Shown here: positions 1 to 9,216 of the stretch, one piece after another
How positions within the stretch are numbered: the stretch's first letter is position 1
Layout of the letters: the number at the start of each line of letters is the position of its first letter
Origin: a virus
Taxonomy: Duplodnaviria > Heunggongvirae > Uroviricota > Caudoviricetes
Strand: one strand, 5' to 3'
Virus record (IMG/VR): IMGVR_UViG_3300047446_000131
Coordinates: 1-9,216 of that record
DNA: 9,216 bases
Made by a program: the position numbers and the translations under genes
The notes under the pieces: generated by a model
Database searches by the model: none
What the model was told of the DNA's origin: nothing
The model's input: the letters and a program-made list of their open reading frames with translations, nothing else

Positions 1-766
1 TCGCGGCATACGTTTCCAGCGTCTTTGCCACGCCATCATCCTCACTGTACCCCGTGGCAATGAGGATGCGCGGTTGATAGCCTGTCACGCTCTTACTTTC
101 TGTCAGCGCCTCCATGGCCTGAATCACCGCCGCACGCTGTTCGCCCTCTTTCGCCTTTGTTTTACTTTCTGCGCGCACCACAATTACCAGCGCACCAGTC
201 TGGTCAAAAATATCTCGCAGGGCCGGGTATAATGTTCCGGCTGTGCCCAGTTTCCCTGCCTGAGTAATGGCCCCTGCCACCACCACTGGTGTATTGACCG
301 GGAACGCCTCATCTTCTCCGCCGGATAACGTCAGGCTGAACGGCAACACCACTTTATTTTCAGCGTCTCCTGCATTCAGGGTGCTGACAGCCGCCGTCAC
401 AGGCGAATCCCCCAGCGCATTCACCACTTCAGTCACACGGTCCGCCGTGGCGTTAACCTGGCTGTGTTCGTCCGTCCCCAGTGTTATCGTCAGGGTCGTA
501 CCTTTCAGCGAGGCCACTGTCTGCGCGTTTTGTTCTGTGGCAGCCACAGCAACAACCGAAATCTTATTACCGGCCCGACCTTCCTGTTTCGCCGTGAAAT
601 CCAGCGCCGTTCCCAGCAGCCAGGAGCCGGCTGTGCCGGAAGCGCACACACCACCAGAGGCGTCCGGCGCTGTCCCCACCAGGCCAATCACTGCCGTGGA
701 GATGGTCTGCACGGCAACCGTGCCTGTCGTCAGTTCAATGGTTTCAACACCATGTAATCCGGACAT
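1..766 (-). CDS. Contractile tail sheath protein (P2 gpFI-like), N-terminal part; gene runs off the left edge
   Basis: Not in the ORF track because it has no stop in the window. Hand translation of the minus strand from ATG at 766 (cat at 764-766) gives MSGLHGVETIELTTGTVAVQTISTAVIGLVGTAPDASGGV..., verified codon by codon for the first 40 residues; the rest was translated by eye and appears open to position 1. It resembles the P2 sheath N-terminus as I recall it ([38 protein letters not shown]). GGGAG Shine-Dalgarno lies about 6 nt upstream. Position after the tail fiber assembly gene matches P2 order (H-G-FI). Confidence 0.78.
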   Translation of the reverse strand, partial: MSGLHGVETIELTTGTVAVQTISTAVIGLVGTAPDASGGVCASGTAGSWLLGTALDFTAKQEGRAGNKISVVAVAATEQNAQTVASLKGTTLTITLGTDEHSQVNATADRVTEVVNALGDSPVTAAVSTLNAGDAENKVVLPFSLTLSGGEDEAFPVNTPVVVAGAITQAGKLGTAGTLYPALRDIFDQTGALVIVVRAESKTKAKEGEQRAAVIQAMEALTESKSVTGYQPRILIATGYSEDDGVAKTLETYAA

Positions 767-779
767 ACATTTCTCCCAT

Positions 780-801
780 AAAAAAACCGCCCTCAGGCGG
801 T
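780..801 (-). terminator. Rho-independent terminator downstream of the tail fiber assembly gene
   Basis: On the minus-strand RNA: ACCGCC-UGAG-GGCGGU (6-bp stem with 5 GC pairs, 4-nt loop; plus coordinates 786-801) followed directly by a run of about 7 U (plus-strand A-run 780-786). It sits between the stop at 821 and the sheath start at 766. Confidence 0.7.
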
Positions 802-820
802 CAGATGATTAACTTCTTTT

Positions 821-1363
821 TCAGGTATTTTGTGGCTGCTCAGGCCAGCTAATATTGTTGTAAGTGGTCTTATCCGTAATAGCGCTGAAATCCATCGCCT
901 GCAGCGATTTCGCGTAAATACGGTACGCTTTCAGCTTCTCCCTGTCTTCGTCACTGATTAATCCCAGCAGCAGGTCTTTTTCCCATTCGCTGGTCATGAT
1001 GCTGACCTGTTTTAACAGGGCATCGCGCTCATCTTCCGCTTTAAGTTTGTAGTCGAAGACAAATTTATCGTCGCGGTAAAACCAGTAACCAGGCACGGTA
1101 ATACGGCGGTTAGCGGTAATATCAGGAACTTCAATAACACTGGCGTTACGGGGTTCAATGCCTGTCACATCCTTACCGACCCACACCACGCGCCCGTCTC
1201 CGGTGTAAACCATTTTTATGGTGTCACTGGCAAAATTTTTCAGCTCTTCATACCAGTTTTTGTCATCTTCCGAAAAAAGCCAGGTGATACCATGTTGTTT
1301 TGTCATCTGATATTGTTCTGCGGTTTTCGGATTGCCTGCAGTAATATTTTTTAAATGCAACAT
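821..1363 (-). CDS. Tail fiber assembly protein (P2 gpG-like chaperone)
   Basis: Complete ORF, 180 aa, ATG start. N-terminus MLHLKNITAGNPKTAEQYQMTK...DKNWYEELKNF...VIEVPDITANRR resembles the P2 gpG N-terminus as I recall it ([22 protein letters not shown]...GKNWYEEVKNF...VVEVPDITSNRR). Lies immediately downstream of the tail fiber gene (stop TAA, 2 nt, then ATG). Confidence 0.9.
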   Translation of the reverse strand: MLHLKNITAGNPKTAEQYQMTKQHGITWLFSEDDKNWYEELKNFASDTIKMVYTGDGRVVWVGKDVTGIEPRNASVIEVPDITANRRITVPGYWFYRDDKFVFDYKLKAEDERDALLKQVSIMTSEWEKDLLLGLISDEDREKLKAYRIYAKSLQAMDFSAITDKTTYNNISWPEQPQNT

Positions 1364-1365
1364 TG

Positions 1366-2793
1366 TTAAACACTCGCCACGTTATACCAGGTGCCGTTAA
1401 TCAGTTTCTGAAGCGGTCGGTAATACACGCCGCCGATGTTATCTGCCGAATTACTTCCGGTTTCCTGCACATTAATACCGGATAACCCGTGGCCTGAAGG
1501 TGAGCGAAATGTCCAGGATACCTGGTTACCTCCCGGGTTGTAATACATTTCGGAACCATAACGCACATCCTGCACACCGCCATTTCGCTGCTGATAACGG
1601 GCATCGAAATTTCCATAGTTTGATGGGGTCATCTGTCCGTTTACAGCGAATGTGATACTGCCATCGGTATTTCTCTGGCTGTAAAAATGCCAGCCGGAAT
1701 CATCACCAAGCTCTGCAACTACAGGTCGGGATGAATTACCCCATAAATTAAACGTTGCGTTTTTCGTGGAGTTGTTGGCGCTGGATAACGTGAATTTTTT
1801 AGCATTTCCGGCCTGAATATTTTTTAACGCTATCGCCACACCATTCTGGAAACGAAATACATGCTGTCCATTCGCATAAACATCCAGAATGCCGTCGCCG
1901 TTTTGTTTTATACCTGTATCGTTATCCCCGAAAGCAATTGAGTTTCCGCCCAGCGCGTTCTGAACGCCGATACCCAGCGCACCATTGACCTGAGAACCGC
2001 CGCCAACAGACACTTTATGCGACATGGATATTTCACCCGTCCGCAGATTAATAGTGAACGGTCGAAGTGGACCAATATCGCCATTCTCGCCCTGACCTTC
2101 ACTGGTAGGGATAAGGTGCAGGCACTCTTCCGAACGACGAAAAATCAGACCAAAGGCTTCGTTGAAAATCCTCAGCGCATTAACACCACGGATTTTCAGT
2201 TCCCCGGTCATGGTGTCACCATCACGCTGAACGGCATTTTTTGCCTTGTCCACCGTGGGTTTTAATCCGAGGTTTTCAACAGCCTCATCCTTGTCTTCCA
2301 CATCCGAAAGATTCTTTTTTCGTTGCAGATAGCGTCTGTCTCCGATTTCCTGAGTAATAATGGCCCTGTCCGGATCAACTTCCAGCACCATGTTTTGTGC
2401 GTGCGTCAGCCCAAGAACCAGCGTCAGAATAACTTCCTTGATAACGGAGTCCGTCTGGTCTGGTAAAAAGGTGTCGGGATAACGTCCGTACGCGATAAGC
2501 GTACCTCTGTCGCTGATCATCCCCAGTTCACGAAGGGTTTTACCGGGGTATGATTTACAGTCAATCACAATATCCCCGCTGATGAAGCCCTCCTCCACCG
2601 CACCGTCGGAAAAGGGTTCCTGCCCGAATTCGCCGTACAACGATGTCATTGCTGCCATTTCATCCGGCGTGGATGGCAATGCCCGCCCGCCCCCGTCACC
2701 AAGCAGAACATGCCGGACGGTCACGGTTTGCCCGTTCTGATATGCTGCTTCAATTTCTGCAGCGCCGGACGTTGTCAGAATCAGTCCATTCAT
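1366..2793 (-). CDS. Tail fiber protein (P2 gpH-like)
   Basis: Complete ORF, 475 aa, ATG start overlapping the upstream stop (ATGA). The C-terminal half (NALGGNSIAFGDNDTGIKQNGDGILDVYANGQHVFRFQNGVAIALKNIQAGNAKKF...VVAELGDDSGWHFYSQRNTDGSITFAVNGQMTPSNYGNFD) closely matches the P2 gpH C-terminal region as I recall it. The N-terminal VGDGGG/LLGDGGG and RELG...GTLIA motifs are also shared. Confidence 0.9.
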   Translation of the reverse strand: MNGLILTTSGAAEIEAAYQNGQTVTVRHVLLGDGGGRALPSTPDEMAAMTSLYGEFGQEPFSDGAVEEGFISGDIVIDCKSYPGKTLRELGMISDRGTLIAYGRYPDTFLPDQTDSVIKEVILTLVLGLTHAQNMVLEVDPDRAIITQEIGDRRYLQRKKNLSDVEDKDEAVENLGLKPTVDKAKNAVQRDGDTMTGELKIRGVNALRIFNEAFGLIFRRSEECLHLIPTSEGQGENGDIGPLRPFTINLRTGEISMSHKVSVGGGSQVNGALGIGVQNALGGNSIAFGDNDTGIKQNGDGILDVYANGQHVFRFQNGVAIALKNIQAGNAKKFTLSSANNSTKNATFNLWGNSSRPVVAELGDDSGWHFYSQRNTDGSITFAVNGQMTPSNYGNFDARYQQRNGGVQDVRYGSEMYYNPGGNQVSWTFRSPSGHGLSGINVQETGSNSADNIGGVYYRPLQKLINGTWYNVASV

Positions 2794-3380
2794 ACACCTG
2801 CCTCACTCTGCCCGCCTGTGGGCACTGTCTTTGTTGTCACACCGGTACTTCTGATTTTTTCTGTCGCCATCACATAGCCGTAACCAAATCCACGCCCTGT
2901 GCTGTTCCCGTAAACGTGAATACTGAACCAGCTGCGCAGATTTTTGGCACGGAGCACCGCATGCTTCAGATCCTGATGATCATTCATCAGCACCGGTAAA
3001 TCCTTCTGCTCCACGTTCAGACGGAAGGTATACGGCTCCCCGGGTGGGGTCTGCTCATACCACTCAACAATCTGCGACCGGAAGGGACTGTCAGCCAGCG
3101 ATGCCATCAGCGCCGCTTTAGTCCCTCTGTGGCGGTGGATGTATGCAGCACGTTTTATCGCAGACCTTTTTTCCGCCTCCGTCCAGTGTTCATTCCAGGT
3201 GTCCACCGCCATTTCCCAGGCCAGCCATGGCAGCAATTCAGCAGGACATAAATCGGGATTTTTCACATAGCGGATTAGGCAGACCGCTATGTCTGACAGC
3301 ATATCTCCGGCGACACAGTCCACCACCCGCTCTGCCCGGCTGGCACTGACCGGCAGTATGCTGCTGATATCGTCATTCAT
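2790..3380 (-). CDS. Baseplate/tail protein I (P2 gpI-like)
   Basis: Complete ORF, 196 aa, ATG start. The motif CPAELLPWLAWEMAVDTWNEHWTEAEKRSAIKRAAYIHRHRGTKAA parallels the P2 gpI motif as I recall it (CPANLLPWLAWAFSVDRWDEKWPEATKRAVIRDAYFIHCHKGTIGA). It sits between the J-like and H-like genes. Confidence 0.85.
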   Translation of the reverse strand: MNDDISSILPVSASRAERVVDCVAGDMLSDIAVCLIRYVKNPDLCPAELLPWLAWEMAVDTWNEHWTEAEKRSAIKRAAYIHRHRGTKAALMASLADSPFRSQIVEWYEQTPPGEPYTFRLNVEQKDLPVLMNDHQDLKHAVLRAKNLRSWFSIHVYGNSTGRGFGYGYVMATEKIRSTGVTTKTVPTGGQSEAGV

Positions 3381-4287
3381 CAGTTGTCTCTACCTTGTTC
3401 AGCGTTACCTTACGGCACCACGGTGCCTGCCCCATCGCAGGAACGATATCACTGCCCGGAGAGGTCAGATTCACCGTAATCACCCCGGTCTGGTGAAGGG
3501 CACCATCCATGCCAGAACGGGATGCCACCGAGCCAATCCGGTGGACGCTGTCAGTGTATGACTGCAGCGCCTTGCGGGCATTTGCCATAACCAGTTCACC
3601 ATCCAGTCCGTAGGGAATATGAATATCCGCCACCACATCGTAGGGAATAATTTCTGCCGTCCGGACACTGACAAAATCCGTCAGGGGACGGGTTTCATCA
3701 TCACAGACTGATGCTGCCACCTTATCCAGCAGGGGTTGTGATGCAGTGCCATTTCCGGACCGGGATAACACATAAAGAAAAACCCGGCCTTCCCGCGAAT
3801 GTGTTTCCGGCCCGTAAGCCTTCACATCCAGCACATCAGGATCAGCACTTTGTGCAAAATAGTGATACGCATTTTTCGCGCCGGCGGTGCTGAGCCGTGC
3901 CCATGACAACTGGATACGTTCGCGAAAAGCGTCATCATCTTCATACACCGCCGGCGTGGGCGGAATGGTGGTGCCGTCTGCCGGGGTAATAACCAGCCGC
4001 TGAACCTGATAATTCGCGCCAACCTGATCCAGATCGCTCCCACCGGCACTGGCAAGCAGTACAGCACGGACAGCATCATTTATCTGCTGGCGCATCAGCG
4101 CCACCCGAAAAGCCAGCGCCTCTGCCCATTTATACGCGGGATCAGATTCCACCAGAGCCGAAAACAACGTATCCAGCTCCTGATACTTCGCCACTATCTG
4201 AGTGACCAGCATTGCGGTATCCGGCACTTCCACCGCATCCGGTACCGGTATCGCGGACAGATCAATGATTGCCTGAGACGTTGCCAA
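3373..4287 (-). CDS. Baseplate assembly protein J (P2 gpJ-like)
   Basis: Complete ORF, 304 aa. Start is TTG at 4287 with GGAGA about 7 nt upstream; no nearby in-frame ATG. N-terminal IIDLSAIPVPDAVE and the internal ITPADGTTIPPTPAV match P2 gpJ as I recall it (IIDLNQLPAPDVVE; ITPADDSTIPPTPAV). It overlaps the 3' end of the W-like gene by 26 nt. Confidence 0.88.
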   Translation of the reverse strand: MATSQAIIDLSAIPVPDAVEVPDTAMLVTQIVAKYQELDTLFSALVESDPAYKWAEALAFRVALMRQQINDAVRAVLLASAGGSDLDQVGANYQVQRLVITPADGTTIPPTPAVYEDDDAFRERIQLSWARLSTAGAKNAYHYFAQSADPDVLDVKAYGPETHSREGRVFLYVLSRSGNGTASQPLLDKVAASVCDDETRPLTDFVSVRTAEIIPYDVVADIHIPYGLDGELVMANARKALQSYTDSVHRIGSVASRSGMDGALHQTGVITVNLTSPGSDIVPAMGQAPWCRKVTLNKVETTDE

Positions 4288-4618
4288 TTTTTATCTCCTC
4301 GAGTCGAATCGTATCCTGAGTTTCGTTATTCACTCCGACAAGCGTCAGCCAAGCGCTTCCTTCTCCTGTCCACGTCACTTCCACCCGCCGGAGAGTCAGG
4401 CGGGGTTCCCAGCGTTCAAGGGCGGTTACCGTTTCACGAACAATTCTCACCCGCGTGAAATCATCCTGTGGGTTATCAAGCAGACTGAAAAGTCTGCTGC
4501 CGTATTCCCTGAGCAGGACCCGGCTGCCGACCGGTGTTGACAAAATATCGGTGACGGACTGGCGCAGATGTTCGTTACCGTGCAGATATCTGCCGGTGGC
4601 TGAATCAATACCAATCAT
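4262..4618 (-). CDS. Baseplate assembly protein W (P2 gpW-like, gp25 family)
   Basis: Complete ORF, 118 aa, ATG start. The core ILSTPVGSRVLLREYGSRLFSLLDNPQ...ERWEPRLTL resembles P2 gpW as I recall it (ILRTPVGSRVMRRDYGSLLASMIDQPQ...LKWEPRVTL). Gene order V-W-J-I is as in P2. Confidence 0.85.
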   Translation of the reverse strand: MIGIDSATGRYLHGNEHLRQSVTDILSTPVGSRVLLREYGSRLFSLLDNPQDDFTRVRIVRETVTALERWEPRLTLRRVEVTWTGEGSAWLTLVGVNNETQDTIRLEEIKIGNVSGNH

Positions 4619-4650
4619 GTTGTTTATTCCGGAAAAGAACTGAAAGGAGA

Positions 4651-5274
4651 TTACATTTGCTGACCAGGCTGTCCGGTGCTGCCACCACTGTCGCCCCGGT
4701 GATTGTGACCGTTATAGACAATTCTGATTTGACTCATCGTTCCGTGATAATCAGAAACCTCACCACCGACCATCAGATCCGCCTTAACCACCGCCTCAGC
4801 ATTCATGGTTGCTTTACCCTGTACGGTCAGGGTATCTGTGATTTCTACCGGACCGTCCAGGGTTCCCCTGCCGGTAATTTTATAGCTGCCGCCTTCAGCC
4901 AGCGTGATGGACAGGGCATTAGCCTGACGGTCGTAACGGATTTCCGTTCCGGTATCAAACAAAATAACATGTTCGTATTCACTGCCCTCAGGGACAGGAA
5001 TGGCGTCAATATTGGCCCCCGGATACACCCGACCGTTACGCAGATCGCCCGCCTCCGATATCACTGTAACGGCATCTCCGGGAGCCGGGTAATTACTGAC
5101 CTGCATGTAGCGCCCGGACTGTACCTGAATCCAGGGCAACGGAGGCGAAAGCACATCCCCGATATCCACCCGAACCATCACCGGGCTACCCGGGATCACC
5201 TCGTCCACCACGCCGCGACGGACCATGTCCGCCACCCTGCGGCGTAACTCAGCCACTTCATCTGCCAGACTCAT
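4651..5274 (-). CDS. Baseplate central spike protein (P2 gpV-like)
   Basis: The ORF track gives 4651..5568, but the ATG at 5274 (MSLADEVAELRRR...) is preceded by GGAGGG about 8 nt upstream and gives 207 aa, close to P2 gpV size. Using the track start would overlap the entire upstream gene. The C-terminus NGHNHRGDSGGSTGQP resembles the P2 gpV C-terminus as I recall it (HTHKHPGDSGGTTGSP). Confidence 0.85.
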   Translation of the reverse strand: MSLADEVAELRRRVADMVRRGVVDEVIPGSPVMVRVDIGDVLSPPLPWIQVQSGRYMQVSNYPAPGDAVTVISEAGDLRNGRVYPGANIDAIPVPEGSEYEHVILFDTGTEIRYDRQANALSITLAEGGSYKITGRGTLDGPVEITDTLTVQGKATMNAEAVVKADLMVGGEVSDYHGTMSQIRIVYNGHNHRGDSGGSTGQPGQQM

Positions 5275-5821
5275 CACCGGTGCCCTCCGATTTCCAGATA
5301 AGACGATAATCCTGCTCATGTCTCTTGCCGGTTTCCGGTACTTTACCCAGCCAGACTTCCTGTAACGGCGCACCTGCCGGAACCGCAAACGGATCTTCGC
5401 CGACCGGAATGTCCTGTTCAAAAGAGACACGGAAAACGATGTAGTCGTCCAGTAGCCGGTCGAAGGTATCCACCTCAGCATCGATAAAAACCGCCGGATC
5501 AACGTTATCCAGCCCGAACGTGGCTCCCTCAATCCAGTCAGATAAATCCATCGCCAGACAACGGGCAAAAATCTGCGGTTTTGGCACGTTTTCCGTCTTC
5601 CCGGCCCGGTCTGTCACCACAAACAGATCACATTTCAGCGTGACCCGCGTTTGCCCGTCAGCAAAATGAGCCTTGTCCCAGCCCGGTACATCTACAAACA
5701 CAGCAGGCGTCACCAGTTGCGTCACTTTTTCCGGGTACTCATCGGCATCTTCCACCCAGGGAATTTGTTTCAGACTGTCAATCACCGCCTGATGCCAGGC
5801 GCCCATCATCAATGGCTCCAT
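5258..5821 (-). CDS. Hypothetical phage structural protein at the head-tail junction; possibly a tail completion (gpR-like) protein
   Basis: Complete ORF, about 187 aa from ATG at 5821 (the track starts at GTG 5824). The ATG overlaps the upstream stop by 1 nt (TGATG coupling). Acidic protein lying directly upstream of the spike gene, where P2 carries tail completion genes R and S. My recollection of a faint resemblance to P2 gpR (a VVTD-type segment) is weak. The function is inferred from position only. Confidence 0.6.
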   Translation of the reverse strand: MEPLMMGAWHQAVIDSLKQIPWVEDADEYPEKVTQLVTPAVFVDVPGWDKAHFADGQTRVTLKCDLFVVTDRAGKTENVPKPQIFARCLAMDLSDWIEGATFGLDNVDPAVFIDAEVDTFDRLLDDYIVFRVSFEQDIPVGEDPFAVPAGAPLQEVWLGKVPETGKRHEQDYRLIWKSEGTGDESGR

Positions 5822-6543
5822 CACTCCAGCCCCTTAAATACCCGGAATTTCAGTTCATGCTCAAAATTTTTCAGGATCAGTGCTTCCGCATCCGGAAAAA
5901 CAAAATCCTCTATACGGTTCAGCATGGCTTCATAAATATCAATTTCCGCTTCACGCACCCTCCGTCGTCCGGATGCCTGTCGGATCAGTATCGTTTTCCT
6001 TTTTGATATACGTCCGTTACGATTTTCCGCTTCGAACTGGTTGATAAAGGCATCATCCGTTGACCAGGTGGTGACAGGCAGGGATTCCCCGGCAGGTTTA
6101 AAACGGATCTCCCGTGCCTTCCTGCGGCGGGAAGCTGGTGCAAAACGCCCCCGCTCATCGCGCAACTGATGGCGTTCGCCGCGTCGCCCCCCACTGATGC
6201 GTCCGCGCAGATCGCGTACTTTGATGGCATTCAGACCGAACCATACCTTCGCCTCATCAAACTCATCACCGTTACGACGAATGATAAAATTATGCAGAAC
6301 ACGCTTTTTGATCATTTTCTGACTGCGTGGGGCAACCTGTTTTTTAAACTCTGCCATAGCCTTCATCCGCAGTGCAGACGCGGCTCTTTTCAGCGCCACG
6401 CCCCAGGCTTTACGGATCTGACTTTTTGACCCACCCAGTTTAGCGATAATTTTCAGCACCTCATCTTCATCAATATCGACGACGAGGTTTCGTGCCAGCC
6501 GTCGCTGCCGGGCACTGCTTCGTTCATGCTCTCTGACTGCCAT
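5821..6543 (-). CDS. Hypothetical highly basic phage protein at the head-tail junction; possible virion morphogenesis or tail completion protein
   Basis: The ORF track gives 5821..6603 with a TTG start. The first in-frame ATG is at 6543 (MAVREHERSSARQRR...), about 240 aa, which overlaps the FII-like gene end by 20 nt. Which start is used is uncertain; no strong Shine-Dalgarno at either. Very Arg/Lys-rich (RRGERHQLRDERGRFAPASRRRKAREIRFK). I recognise no confident family. Confidence 0.55.
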   Translation of the reverse strand: MAVREHERSSARQRRLARNLVVDIDEDEVLKIIAKLGGSKSQIRKAWGVALKRAASALRMKAMAEFKKQVAPRSQKMIKKRVLHNFIIRRNGDEFDEAKVWFGLNAIKVRDLRGRISGGRRGERHQLRDERGRFAPASRRRKAREIRFKPAGESLPVTTWSTDDAFINQFEAENRNGRISKRKTILIRQASGRRRVREAEIDIYEAMLNRIEDFVFPDAEALILKNFEHELKFRVFKGLE

Positions 6544-6928
6544 AACGTTTACTCGGTCGTTCCGGTGCAGCAGGTGTATTTCTCCCCGGCTCTCCACGCG
6601 CAAGGGTGATGGTAATCACCCCCTGACCCACAGTGCCTGACTCACCCCAGCCGGGATCGACTACCTGATAGGGTTCGCCGTGGATCATGACCCTGTCATA
6701 TTTTTTCAGACCGGCGGCCCATGCGCTCCGGGTAAATAACACGGGCGCAGTATCACGAATTTCGCCGCTGCCAGTGTTCATCCCGGTGTTTTCTGCCGGG
6801 GCATCAAAAACGGCACGGATTCTTCTTTCCGTGCCGCCCGGATATATGCTGATTTCCGTCCCCATCGTATCCAGGATGATGTCATCCGCATCGCTCATGG
6901 CCTGATCGAACAGATTATCTAACATCAT
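6524..6928 (-). CDS. Head-tail joining protein (lambda gpFII-like)
   Basis: ORF 6524..6931 in the track (GTG then ATG ATG); I take the ATG at 6928, which overlaps the upstream stop (TGATG). N-terminal LDNLFDQAMSDADDIILDTMGTEISI...AVFDAP...PVLFTRS parallels lambda FII as I recall it (FDNLFDAAIARADETIRGYMGTSATI...GVFDDP...PSLFVRT). About 18 residues longer at the C-terminus than lambda FII. Confidence 0.8.
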   Translation of the reverse strand: MMLDNLFDQAMSDADDIILDTMGTEISIYPGGTERRIRAVFDAPAENTGMNTGSGEIRDTAPVLFTRSAWAAGLKKYDRVMIHGEPYQVVDPGWGESGTVGQGVITITLARGEPGRNTPAAPERPSKRYGSQRA

Positions 6929-7293
6929 CACTCCCAGATTTTTTCTGCCAGACCGTCCGCCAGCAACGCAGGAACTGCGGCTTCATTAACCAGCACAACA
7001 CTGGAGGCCCGGGCAAACATCAACATTTTTCCCGTCACAGCATCACAGGCTGGCATATGCGCCGTTTTCAGCATACGCACCCGGGCGAGTCCCCGCTCAG
7101 AATGCATTCCGTCGCCGGATGCATCGTTGCCCACATCTTCCTTCCCTGTCTCCTCCCCATCGAATCCGGCGGCCTCCTCTTCCCATTCCGCCAGGCGCTG
7201 CTCAAGATCGGCTTTTGAACCTGAAATATCTGCTTCACGCCCCAGAATCACTGCCAGTTCCTGCAAACGTTCAGTCATCTGCTCTTTTGTCAT
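6928..7293 (-). CDS. DNA packaging / head assembly protein (lambda gpFI-like)
   Basis: The track ORF 6928..7425 starts at TTG. The ATG at 7293 (MTKEQMTERLQELAVILGREADISGSKADLEQRLAEWEEE...) has GGAGAG 5 nt upstream and gives 121 aa. The N-terminus resembles lambda FI as I recall it (MTKDELIARLRSLGEQLNRDVSLTGTKEELALRVAELKEE). Located between the E-like and FII-like genes as in lambda. Confidence 0.75.
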   Translation of the reverse strand: MTKEQMTERLQELAVILGREADISGSKADLEQRLAEWEEEAAGFDGEETGKEDVGNDASGDGMHSERGLARVRMLKTAHMPACDAVTGKMLMFARASSVVLVNEAAVPALLADGLAEKIWE

Positions 7294-7311
7294 CACATCT
7301 CTCCCGTGCGC

Positions 7312-7341
7312 TAAAGAAAAAGGCGGGAATATCCCGCCCCG
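7312..7341 (-). terminator. Rho-independent terminator or attenuator immediately downstream of the major capsid gene
   Basis: On the minus-strand RNA: a GC-rich stem GGCGGGA/UCCCGCC (plus 7323-7329 and 7333-7339, 3-nt loop) followed by UUUUUCUUU (plus 7312-7322). It starts 3 nt after the capsid stop codon at 7344. Confidence 0.65.
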
Positions 7342-7343
7342 TC

Positions 7344-8372
7344 TTATTTCACCTGAACCACCACAAACGCATCCGGATCCGGCAGCACCATCAACGGCGC
7401 AGACTGCGTCATGGTATATTCGCAACCAGGATCCCCCACTTCCTCCCAGTGTTTCGGATAACGAATCGCAGAGGTGATCCCTTCACTCAGTGCCTGATTA
7501 TCCTGAATGGCACCATAACAACGGACGCCTTCCGCCTGAGTGTTCCCCAGAATCAGTGTACCTTCCGGCAGATAACGCTGTTCATCCCCGTTTTCGTCAA
7601 CATACGTTGTCTTCGCCACCACAATTGCCAGATCGCCGTAATGGCCTTTAAAGGAAACCACGGAGCCCAGATCTTTCAGTGCCGTTTCCAGCTCAGATTT
7701 GGAGCCACGGCGGGTATCCAGTTTTTCACGGAACAGTTTAAAACCGTTCAGCATACGCCAGACCGTGCCGTCCATAATCGCGATATTGATGGTGCCGGAA
7801 GCGAAATCGCAGTACGCATCCAGATCATGCGTCGGATCGAAGGTGTCAGCATTCTGCTGTGACCATTCGCGTCCGCCAGCCTGCGTAATGTTATTGGCGA
7901 CAGAACGCCCAAAATCCACTTCCACCGTCTCAAACTGCTCGCCGCTCATGGTGTATTTACCCTGCAGAACGGCACTGACCGCCTGCATTTCTTCCACCTG
8001 CACAATCGCCTGCTCTTCCTGTTTCAGGTTGTCCGTCAGAATACGCAGACGGCGGTAAGCCGGGTCATTAAGGCGGGCCGGATCTTCTCCCGGAAGACGT
8101 TCCACTGCCTGCTGATAATCAAAGCGGTGTTTTGGTTTTACATAACCGGGACGTAACACACGGGTTTCACCACCACGGCTGCGCAGCACTTTGCCTGACA
8201 CCACCGGAGACACATACGCTGCAACCGGTGTTTTGCCGGTAATTTTATCCAGCATGACTTCCTGAGTATGGAAAGTGATCGTGCGACGAAAGAACAGCTC
8301 CAGAAACAGCGCACGAAATTTCACTTTCTGCTCGGTGTACCCGAGTAACTGACGCGTGGTAAATAACCCCAT
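7344..8372 (-). CDS. Major capsid protein (lambda gpE-like)
   Basis: Complete ORF, 342 aa, ATG start with GAAGGA upstream. Extensive similarity along the whole length to lambda gpE as I recall it, e.g. YVSPVVSGKVLRSRGG...PGYVKPKH, QVEEMQAVSAVLQGKYTMSGEQF, KLDTRRGSKSELETALKDLG, ILGNTQAEGVRCYGAIQD, MTQSAPLMVLPDPDAFVVVQ. Confidence 0.95.
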   Translation of the reverse strand: MGLFTTRQLLGYTEQKVKFRALFLELFFRRTITFHTQEVMLDKITGKTPVAAYVSPVVSGKVLRSRGGETRVLRPGYVKPKHRFDYQQAVERLPGEDPARLNDPAYRRLRILTDNLKQEEQAIVQVEEMQAVSAVLQGKYTMSGEQFETVEVDFGRSVANNITQAGGREWSQQNADTFDPTHDLDAYCDFASGTINIAIMDGTVWRMLNGFKLFREKLDTRRGSKSELETALKDLGSVVSFKGHYGDLAIVVAKTTYVDENGDEQRYLPEGTLILGNTQAEGVRCYGAIQDNQALSEGITSAIRYPKHWEEVGDPGCEYTMTQSAPLMVLPDPDAFVVVQVK

Positions 8373-8395
8373 AATTTATTTTCCTTCAGAAACAC

Positions 8396-8420
8396 AAACG
8401 GGCCGCATCGCGACCCGTTT
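8396..8420 (-). promoter_or_regulatory. Intergenic RNA hairpin between the D-like and E-like genes (possible attenuator or mRNA-stabilising structure)
   Basis: On the minus-strand RNA an 11-bp stem with one G-U wobble (plus 8396-8406 pairing with 8410-8420, 3-nt loop), followed by a moderately U-rich stretch and then the capsid gene Shine-Dalgarno. Structure predicted by eye only. Confidence 0.35.
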
Positions 8421-8440
8421 TTCAGTTAATCACTTCACCA

Positions 8441-8776
8441 TCAGGCGTGGCTGATGGCACTTCCCACAAATGCGTTGGCTTTTTTCACCGCATCCACAGA
8501 GTCAGGCCAGACCAGCGACTCAGTGGCAAACGTACCGCTTTTGTAGTACGTCAGCGTGGGTTCTGTTCCGGTAAGCGCCAGAGCCAGCACCCCCACTGCC
8601 GTTCCGGCTTTCTGACCATCCCATGCCACCAGTTTACCGGTGGCGTCATCCAGCATCAGTGGCGTCAGTGCAGGCGTGGCAGCACTGATACCACTGATGG
8701 CTATAGCGGTATGCGCCGGATCGCTTCCGGTAAAAATACGTACATCCGCACGCGTCTCTGTCGTGGTTTTAATCAT
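8441..8776 (-). CDS. Head decoration protein (lambda gpD-like)
   Basis: The track ORF 8441..8806 starts at GTG. The ATG at 8776 (MIKTTTETRADVRIFTGSDPAHTAIA...) has GGGAG about 9 nt upstream and gives 111 aa (lambda D is about 110 aa). Motifs SDPAHTA, TPLMLD, KLVAWDG, YKSGTF and AFVGSAIS align with lambda gpD as I recall it (SDPAHTA, TPLMLD, KLVAWDG, YKSGTF, AFAGTAIS). Confidence 0.9.
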   Translation of the reverse strand: MIKTTTETRADVRIFTGSDPAHTAIAISGISAATPALTPLMLDDATGKLVAWDGQKAGTAVGVLALALTGTEPTLTYYKSGTFATESLVWPDSVDAVKKANAFVGSAISHA

Positions 8777-8815
8777 CTTTTCTGACTCCCGATTTATCTG
8801 AATCACTGTTGCCGC

Positions 8816-9216
8816 TTACGGCATACTCATCAGCAGGTCTTCTTCCCCGCGTCCGGCAGTTCCGCCGCCGGAAACCGCGCTGGCGGCATGCTGTGCCATA
8901 AAGCGATCAAAAAGCGTTTCCTGTGACGGTTGTGATGCCGCCGGTGCGGCTGCCAGCAATGTTTTCGCCTGCTCAACCGTCATTCCCGGTTGTTCTGCCA
9001 GTGCCTGTGCCAGTTGCTCGCGCCCTTTCGCCTCCGACAGTGCCATAATCTGCTCACCGGCACTTGCTGAACCAGCAACCGGTGCCGCTGCCAGTAACGT
9101 TTTTGCCTGGCCAACGGTCATTCCCGGCTGTTCAGCCAGCGCCTGCGCCAGTTGTTCACGCCCTTTTGCTTCCGGCAACGCCATAATCTGATCGCCTGTG
9201 CCTGCAGCACTGGCAG
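8816..9216 (-). CDS. Prohead scaffold/protease (lambda C/Nu3-like), C-terminal part; gene runs off the right edge
   Basis: The reading frame is open from the window edge to the TAA at 8816; the track shows only an internal-Met segment 8816..9184. The C-terminal motif QIMALSEAKGREQLAQALAEQPGMTVEQAKTLLAAAP matches the lambda C/Nu3 C-terminus as I recall it (RIMGILNCEEAHGREEQARVLAETPGMTVKTARRILAAAP). It lies directly upstream of the D-like gene, as in lambda. Confidence 0.8.
   Translation of the reverse strand, partial: ASAAGTGDQIMALPEAKGREQLAQALAEQPGMTVGQAKTLLAAAPVAGSASAGEQIMALSEAKGREQLAQALAEQPGMTVEQAKTLLAAAPAASQPSQETLFDRFMAQHAASAVSGGGTAGRGEEDLLMSMP
8909..9216 (-). repeat. In-frame tandem repeat, 138-bp (46-aa) unit, inside the scaffold gene: two full copies plus a partial third at the window edge
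   Basis: Units at about 8909-9046 and 9047-9184, with a third starting at 9185. Manual alignment of 106 nt of the two full copies shows 18 mismatches, mostly at codon third positions, while the encoded 35-aa cores differ at only 2 residues. Confidence 0.75.

Follow-up and report, generated by a model that had tools for sequence, protein, structure and literature searches.

An old, strongly constrained pair of tandem units at the 3' end of a lambda C/Nu3-type prohead protease/scaffold gene, homologous to the Tri boxes of phage 21

What might explain why a phage head gene ends in several in-frame copies of one protein segment, with the amino acids almost unchanged from copy to copy and the codon wobble positions so different? 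The question is raised by the right-hand end of a 9,216-nucleotide stretch of tailed-phage DNA (IMG/VR record IMGVR_UViG_3300047446_000131), which we call the window. The original prediction held that a C-terminal scaffold motif, carried once by lambda C/Nu3, is present here in at least two full copies plus part of a third, and that purifying selection rather than recent slippage accounts for the pattern. Our answer has parts of unequal strength. For the gene identity, the repeat architecture and the way the array evolves, taken alone, we have very high confidence; the whole explanation, which adds a multivalent binding role for the units, we favor only slightly.

The long open reading frames (ORFs) of the window are all on the minus strand, and no ORF of at least 60 aa was found on the opposite strand of the repeat region. 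The coding frame of the repeat region (window:8816-9214:-) continues past the right window edge, and the fragment held by the window is the final 132 codons of the gene. It reads, in order, ASAAGTGDQ / IMALPEAKGREQLAQALAEQPGMTVGQAKTLLAAAP VAGSASAGEQ / IMALSEAKGREQLAQALAEQPGMTVEQAKTLLAAAP AASQPSQETL / FDRFMAQHAASAVSGGGTAGRGEEDLLMSMP*, comprising the final 9 codons of one unit, two full in-frame units of 138 nt (46 codons), which we call A and B, and a unique tail (Table 1). Tandem Repeats Finder reports the repeat at 8941-9190 with a period of 138 nt, 1.8 copies, 83% matches, 0 indels and a score of 374. Unit A scores 85 bits with the unit HMM described below, and at the given base composition the chance of at least 90 matches in 108 positions is 4e-34. 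The partial third copy is also real, because unit 3 of the collinear relative L013 ends in the same nine residues that open the window fragment, and in relatives a fourth copy lies further upstream. The units and the end of the preceding unit are a genuine repeat, and an assembly artefact is ruled out because the same array is present in 14 relatives whose assemblies are independent, closed chromosomes in many cases, and because the copies differ too much (17-29% of nucleotides) for collapse or expansion during assembly. The motif does lie in the C-terminal part of the protein, as predicted, but not at its extreme C-terminus, since the 31-residue tail follows. This tail resembles the lambda C/Nu3 tail (..LDRLMQG..NDLLNTPV) and the phage 21 gp5/gp6 tails, and its residues F508 and M512 are invariant in an alignment of 55 sequences.

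Table 1. Features of the repeat-bearing gene end and of the two head genes beside it in the window
Feature	Position	Strand	Evidence
Major capsid protein gene (lambda E family, 342 aa); product is the presumed scaffold partner	7344..8372	-	PF03864
Head-decoration gene (lambda D / phage 21 shp homologue, 111 aa), downstream	8441..8776	-	PF02924
Stop codon of the protease/scaffold gene	8816-8818	-	ORF and translation
Non-repeated C-terminal tail, 31 residues, FDRFMAQHAASAVSGGGTAGRGEEDLLMSMP	8819..8911	-	translation
Repeat unit B, last, 46 codons	8912..9049	-	Tandem Repeats Finder, alignment, unit HMM
Unit B linker position, AASQPSQETL, 10 codons, diverged and run into the tail	8941-8912	-	
Unit B core IMALSEAKGREQLAQALAEQPGMTVEQAKTLLAAAP	9049-8942	-	
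Repeat unit A, penultimate, 46 codons	9050..9187	-	Tandem Repeats Finder, alignment, unit HMM
Unit A Ala/Gly/Ser linker VAGSASAGEQ, 10 codons	9079-9050	-	
Unit A 36-codon helical core IMALPEAKGREQLAQALAEQPGMTVGQAKTLLAAAP	9187-9080	-	
Linker end of the preceding unit, last 9 codons ASAAGTGDQ (9214-9188)	9188..9216	-	translation; matches L013 unit 3 end

Sequence comparison identifies the repeat region as the 3' end of an enterobacterial prophage gene of the lambda C/Nu3 type, encoding an S49 prohead protease and a predicted nested scaffold. The same segment occurs at 80-97% identity in more than 100 E. coli genomes, where the repeat-bearing gene is annotated as an S49 family peptidase. In the best complete E. 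coli genome (strain A36, L001; 96.6% identity over window 7300-9216) the full gene has 538 codons and encodes an N-terminal Peptidase_S49 domain, then four tandem 46-residue units and the same tail; its product matches PF01343 (E 1.6e-33) and SppA structures (E 1.5e-16) through the domain that falls outside the window and is read in relatives. Relative L013, collinear with all 9216 bases at 98.5% identity, likewise has a 538-codon, four-unit gene. A unit in these genes consists of a helical core of 36 residues and a linker, about 10 residues long, that is rich in Ala, Gly, Ser and Pro. The window fragment itself matches PHROG 53 (head maturation protease) with E 1.8e-43 and, in two stretches, PHROG 8940 with E 6.8e-21; the latter family, of 201 positions and labeled 'capsid assembly protein', has the label and length of lambda nu3, which upholds the proposed homology of the motif to Nu3. 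The position of the gene fits as well: D-like and E-like genes lie directly downstream in the window, and together these two are 76% identical in DNA to those of phage 21, while a portal gene lies directly upstream in relatives. The window's own gene leaves the window edge, and most probably has four units like the genes of its relatives.

A candidate nested start for the scaffold can be read in relatives, at a site beyond the window. In L013 and L005 a strong Shine-Dalgarno sequence, AAGGAG or CAGGAGG, stands 6-8 nt before an in-frame ATG at codon 303, where the annotated phage 21 gene 6 starts. Initiation there would yield a nested scaffold of 236 aa, a predicted product with about 20 residues followed by the four units and the tail. 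This nested 236-aa scaffold is without annotation in the E. coli genome records that were compared.

How widespread is the unit, and in how many copies? With an HMM built from the four A36 units, a single match was obtained in lambda C (residues 363-399, E 1.7e-16), so the premise that lambda C/Nu3 carries the motif once was right. N15, phi80 and HK225 also have one unit, three are present in phage 21, Gifsy-1, 4A7 and PhiR12_2_star, and the window's clade has four, with 3 or 5 in some members. The 120 best database homologues comprise 75 with 3 units, 41 with 4, three with 5 and one with 1. Within the close clade (at least 81% aa identity) the 492-aa proteins have 3 units, those of 538 aa have 4, and those of 568, 578 and 584 aa have 5, the longest being L014; copy number therefore does vary among relatives, as had been anticipated, at 3, 4 and 5 copies. 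A diverged form of the array is found also in phage 21, Gifsy-1 and many Salmonella prophages. Two further proteins show other rearrangements: P0107, of the phage 21 type and 551 aa long, has a fourth unit that is a Tri3/Tri2 chimera, and in P0044 (657 aa) a larger internal duplication takes in the end of the protease domain together with Tri1 and Tri2.

The names of these units come from phage 21. In GenBank record M81255.1, which covers the phage 21 head operon, gene 6 (the analogue of Nu3, nested in gene 5) contains repeat_regions called 'Tri1 box', 'Tri box' and 'Tri3 box'; all three are noted as 'function unknown; putative'. They correspond approximately to gp5 residues 324-358, 371-407 and 418-455, and the unit HMM matches residues 320-355, 371-406 and 417-451. 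The window repeats are the same motif as these Tri boxes, on record since the 1990s, with the window a four-box relative, and tandem repetition as a kind is therefore already known. Literature searches found no papers on these repeats, explaining the Tri boxes or showing a binding partner of the unit. In phage 21 (M81255.1, OL657228.1) protease gene 5 with the nested scaffold gene 6 lies, like the protease gene of the window's clade, between the portal and decoration genes, the motif of about 35-38 residues is likewise tandem and in frame inside gene 6/5, and the nested start is at the position equivalent to the candidate start at codon 303 of the window's relatives. The capsid protein is 82% identical to that of the window's clade. 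However, clear differences can be discerned. The three phage 21 units are only 50-55% identical to each other, whereas the four (in some members 3 or 5) of the window's clade are 68-92% identical to each other and 53-76% identical to the phage 21 boxes. A Tri2-type signature (..AMPEMTVE..) is present in phage 21 and absent from the window's clade, and units 2-4 of that clade, unlike the phage 21 boxes, look like Tri3/Tri1 chimeras. The triplication seen in phage 21 is not matched, close relatives carrying four units and the window showing two and part of another. The tail module also differs, being P2-like in the window's prophage and lambda-like in phage 21.

Lambda C/Nu3 and its counterparts in N15, phi80 and HK225 have the nested organization predicted for the window's clade, with one copy of the motif followed by a similar C-terminal tail, and the lambda C protease domain is homologous to that of the window's clade (63% aa identity). 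In these four phages (L002, L022-L024), however, the single unit is preceded by a low-complexity stretch of about 70 residues, rich in T, S, A, Q and V, where the 21-type phages have extra units. The lambda Nu3 start is also further upstream, within the end of the protease domain, compared with the predicted codon-303 start of the window's relatives.

How old is the pair of units in the window, and what has kept it? Across the core 36 codons (IMAL..AAAP), units A and B are identical at 90 of 108 nucleotides (83.3%) and 34 of 36 amino acids (94.4%), exactly as the manual count of about 83% and 94% had it. By the Nei-Gojobori method the core has 15.5 synonymous differences on 28 sites and 2.5 nonsynonymous differences on 80, giving dS of about 1.0, dN of 0.032 and omega of about 0.03. 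Over the full 46 codons the identity falls to 71% of nucleotides and 78% of amino acids, because the linker position of the last unit has turned into the start of the unique tail, and the differences at codon positions 1, 2 and 3 number 8, 9 and 23. Of the 34 positions at which the residues agree, 19 also have the same codon, where 15.4 would be expected from independent draws of the phage codon usage (P(>=19)=0.12). The synonymous sites of the pair are not distinguishable from saturation or full randomization. Since the wobble sites look randomized while omega is 0.03, the pair is old and protein-constrained and does not stem from recent slippage. The same 19 identical codons against 15.4 expected give no evidence of an active keeping-apart of synonymous codons between units, that is, of selection against recombination. 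For scale, at a dS of about 1.1-1.2 between the clade and phage 21, the protease domain retains 73% and the capsid protein 82% aa identity, compared with 94% for the window units. The window pair is an old, strongly constrained pair within a dynamic array.

The dynamics become visible when the units of relatives are compared. In the alignment of units from 14 relatives, whole 3' halves including the linker have moved among positions 5, 4 and 3 from the C-terminal end, and in the five-unit array of L014 units u-4 and u-3 are 94% identical in DNA. Over 78 pairs of relatives, mean pairwise dS is highest in the repeats (0.15), compared with 0.064 for the protease domain and 0.047 for the tail; for L004 and L009 it is 0.11 in the repeats and 0.004 in the protease domain. 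More distant members have lineage-specific substitutions and linkers that are common to all units of one protein, such as LAKALAGQPGMSV..VAGTDNTGDQ in P0043 and ..GGTSAPVSDQ in P0041, and linkers vary freely both among units and among relatives. In other lineages, an E. coli prophage (L025, 1501-3135) and a Cronobacter prophage (L026, 1501-2979), the units of each array contain long identical nucleotide tracts (pS 0.08-0.3); units 1 and 2 of L026 are identical over their last 38 codons. The L025 and L026 tracts indicate recent gene conversion or duplication. These comparisons show that the array evolves through unequal crossover and gene conversion; between such events strong purifying selection holds the protein sequence of each unit. 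The simplest reading is a birth-and-death, concerted-evolution array, in which the last two units of the window have long gone unhomogenized and are held by selection. The predicted purifying selection is thus borne out by an omega of 0.03, but it is not the whole story, as the units are also periodically homogenized by conversion or crossover.

One local comparison has to be read with care. The window and L013 have 31 mismatches in the 431 nt of the repeat region, which could be taken as divergence specific to the repeat. That is true only in part, since the decoration gene next to the repeat has diverged just as far (dS 0.24, with 12 nonsynonymous differences), unlike the capsid gene (dS 0.03, 1 nonsynonymous). 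Part of the divergence between the window and L013 at the repeat is a mosaic patch that also covers the decoration gene.

To what fold might such a unit correspond? AlphaFold2 predicts for each unit a short helix (..QIMAL), a turn (EAKGR), a helix (EQLAQALA), a second turn (EQPGMT) and a further helix (VEQAKTLLAA). In both the full protein and the window fragment the pLDDT of the units is 67-80 and lower in the linkers, and in the window units A and B are modeled as the short helix and two helices at a pLDDT of about 70-75. The mean pLDDT of the two models is 59 and 64, so confidence in them is moderate. Across 230 distinct units, 14 of 38 positions are at least 92% conserved, the near-invariant ones being I2, E7, A8, G10, R11, E12, L14, A15, L18, A19, P22, M24, A29 and L33. 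Family searches returned little. A Pfam scan gave no family for the unit, with only sub-threshold likeness to the HU N-terminus, DUF732, T2SSK and Volactin; a PDB sequence search gave only the SppA protease domain and a chance-level match to bL12 (E 0.07); and Foldseek with the AlphaFold2 models gave no significant match, none having an E below 2. A HMMER search of one 46-residue unit against 1.84 billion representatives returned only 56 matches. Among the HMMER matches those with five or six 'stretches' were considered as unit arrays and set aside as false positives, being ankyrin, TPR-like or unrelated repeat proteins. Identity with the helix-hairpin-helix (HhH) was also rejected: the Pfam scan contained no HhH family at E<=1, and RuvA and ERCC1 had Foldseek E>=2 with a probability of at most 0.12.

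What, then, could the units do? Lambda Nu3 interacts with E, with C and with itself in two-hybrid assays (PMC3224144), and in the scaffolds of P22, phi29, SPP1, 80alpha and herpesviruses the coat protein is bound by C-terminal helix-turn-helix or helical elements (PMC11565965). Because of these interactions, and because the repeat region is common to protease and scaffold, we suggest that the units are repeated protein-binding modules of the scaffold/protease, a role for which we find the case evenly balanced. Each unit would fold independently, in helix-turn-helix-like fashion, on a flexible string, and would be one of several equivalent protein-binding sites common to the scaffold and the protease. 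The likeliest targets would be the inner face or N-arm of the major capsid protein, other scaffold chains, or both. A single chain could in this way connect a number of capsid subunits and bring the protease into the procapsid, and its valency and reach would depend on how many units it has. The S49 protease might plausibly cut within the Ala-rich linkers, by which the scaffold could be reduced to small pieces for removal. The comparison with better known scaffolds is one of analogy. In P22 gp8, phi29, SPP1 and 80alpha a largely flexible scaffold has small helical elements towards its C-terminus (PMC11565965), to which the predicted window unit is similar, but the element described here comes in 3-5 copies with a unique tail behind them, whereas the P22-type coat-binding element is at the extreme C-terminus. 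Neither the PDB sequence search nor Foldseek gave a sequence or fold match between the P22-type coat-binding domain and the window unit.

In the strongest alternative, the units are mainly a string that sets length or self-associates, the unique tail is the real capsid binder, and copy number acts through scaffold length. The unique tail rather than the unit could be the capsid-binding part, given its invariant residues and the extreme C-terminal position of the coat-binding element in other scaffolds (PMC11565965), and the self-association of Nu3 (PMC3224144) would also suit a string of this kind. Extra units may mainly supply length, as the lambda types work with one unit and a spacer of about 70 residues: in lambda, N15, phi80 and HK225 the low-complexity stretch replaces the extra units, and lambda Nu3 (201 aa) and phage 21 gp6 (200 aa) are of the same length with 1 and 3 units, respectively. 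A mere spacer, however, would not keep 14 of 38 positions at least 92% conserved across 230 units, nor would it give an omega of 0.03 between paralogous units, and the parts that are spacer-like, the linkers, do vary freely. We regard this alternative as possible but doubtful.

The binding-module reading has a stronger form, in which the number of units is a selected, tunable valency of the scaffold/protease for the capsid shell, and the series 1, 3, 4, 5 is an adaptation of assembly kinetics or fidelity. We think this form improbable. If it were true, the 94% protein identity alongside randomized synonymous sites would go beyond mere drift following an ancient duplication, and would mean either that selection keeps all units matched to one binding site or that there is selection against the nucleotide identity that invites deletion. 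The natural copy-number series of 1 (lambda-type), 3 (21-type) and 3-5 (this clade) makes scaffold valency and length testable for T=7 head assembly. The feature is otherwise an ordinary, widely sequenced part of enterobacterial prophage head modules.

Could the units matter instead as starts of translation? If each had its own start, at the ATG of ..QIMAL.., a ladder of nested scaffold proteins would result. This gene pair typically has nested in-frame starts, and every unit has an in-frame ATG after a purine-containing stretch, such as caggcgatcagattATG or ccggtgagcagattATG. Yet these upstream stretches are poor Shine-Dalgarno sequences compared with the AAGGAG or CAGGAGG at codon 303, unit 1 has Leu and not Met at the start position, and Met stands there in only 54% of all units, which makes such a ladder very unlikely.

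An even less probable idea is that the repeats act on nucleic acid, either as DNA or RNA sites, for example regulator boxes, or through HhH-like DNA-binding protein modules. The phage 21 record does label them as DNA 'boxes', a newer phage 21 record marks CII-consensus pattern matches within the gene, the best Foldseek matches (RuvA, XPF-ERCC1 and RecR, all non-significant) are helix-hairpin-helix proteins, and there is the weak Pfam likeness to the HU N-terminus and T2SSK. Against this, residues have been kept while wobble bases were randomized, whereas a DNA or RNA site would have the reverse pattern, and the fold and Pfam likenesses fall below significance (Foldseek E>=2; Pfam under the curated cut-offs). 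In lambda head assembly, moreover, the scaffold works inside the procapsid before DNA enters. Finally, recent replication slippage or an assembly artefact without a selected role can practically be dismissed: tandem repeats in general do arise by slippage, and relatives hold fresh duplicates (the L014 and L026 pairs above), but the window units differ at 17% of core nucleotides with synonymous sites indistinguishable from random, the frame is intact without indels, the same array stands in 14 independent assemblies, and diverged arrays are present in phage 21, Gifsy-1 and many Salmonella prophages.

The prophage around the repeat is a hybrid, in which a lambda-type head module abuts a P2-type contractile tail module (window 1-9216; L010-L017). 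Its head genes are Nu1, A, W, portal, S49 protease, D, E, FI and FII-like, and its tail genes are gpV, gp25/W, J, I, fibre, fibre-assembly protein, sheath, tube, tape measure, U, X and D. Neighboring head genes in some relatives look damaged or fused: the portal gene of strain A36 (L001 7122-8647) is annotated as frameshifted, and a 480-aa capsid-FI fusion is called in L016 (5011-6453). At the other end of the window, collinearity with most relatives is lost over positions 1-1840, where the tail-fibre and fibre-assembly genes lie. No database record has the exact fibre protein, and the 475-aa fibre arrangement of the window is matched among relatives only in L013. The plus-strand ORF at 267-812 (181 aa) has a low-complexity translation; since in relatives the sheath gene begins at this place on the minus strand, this antisense ORF is probably spurious.
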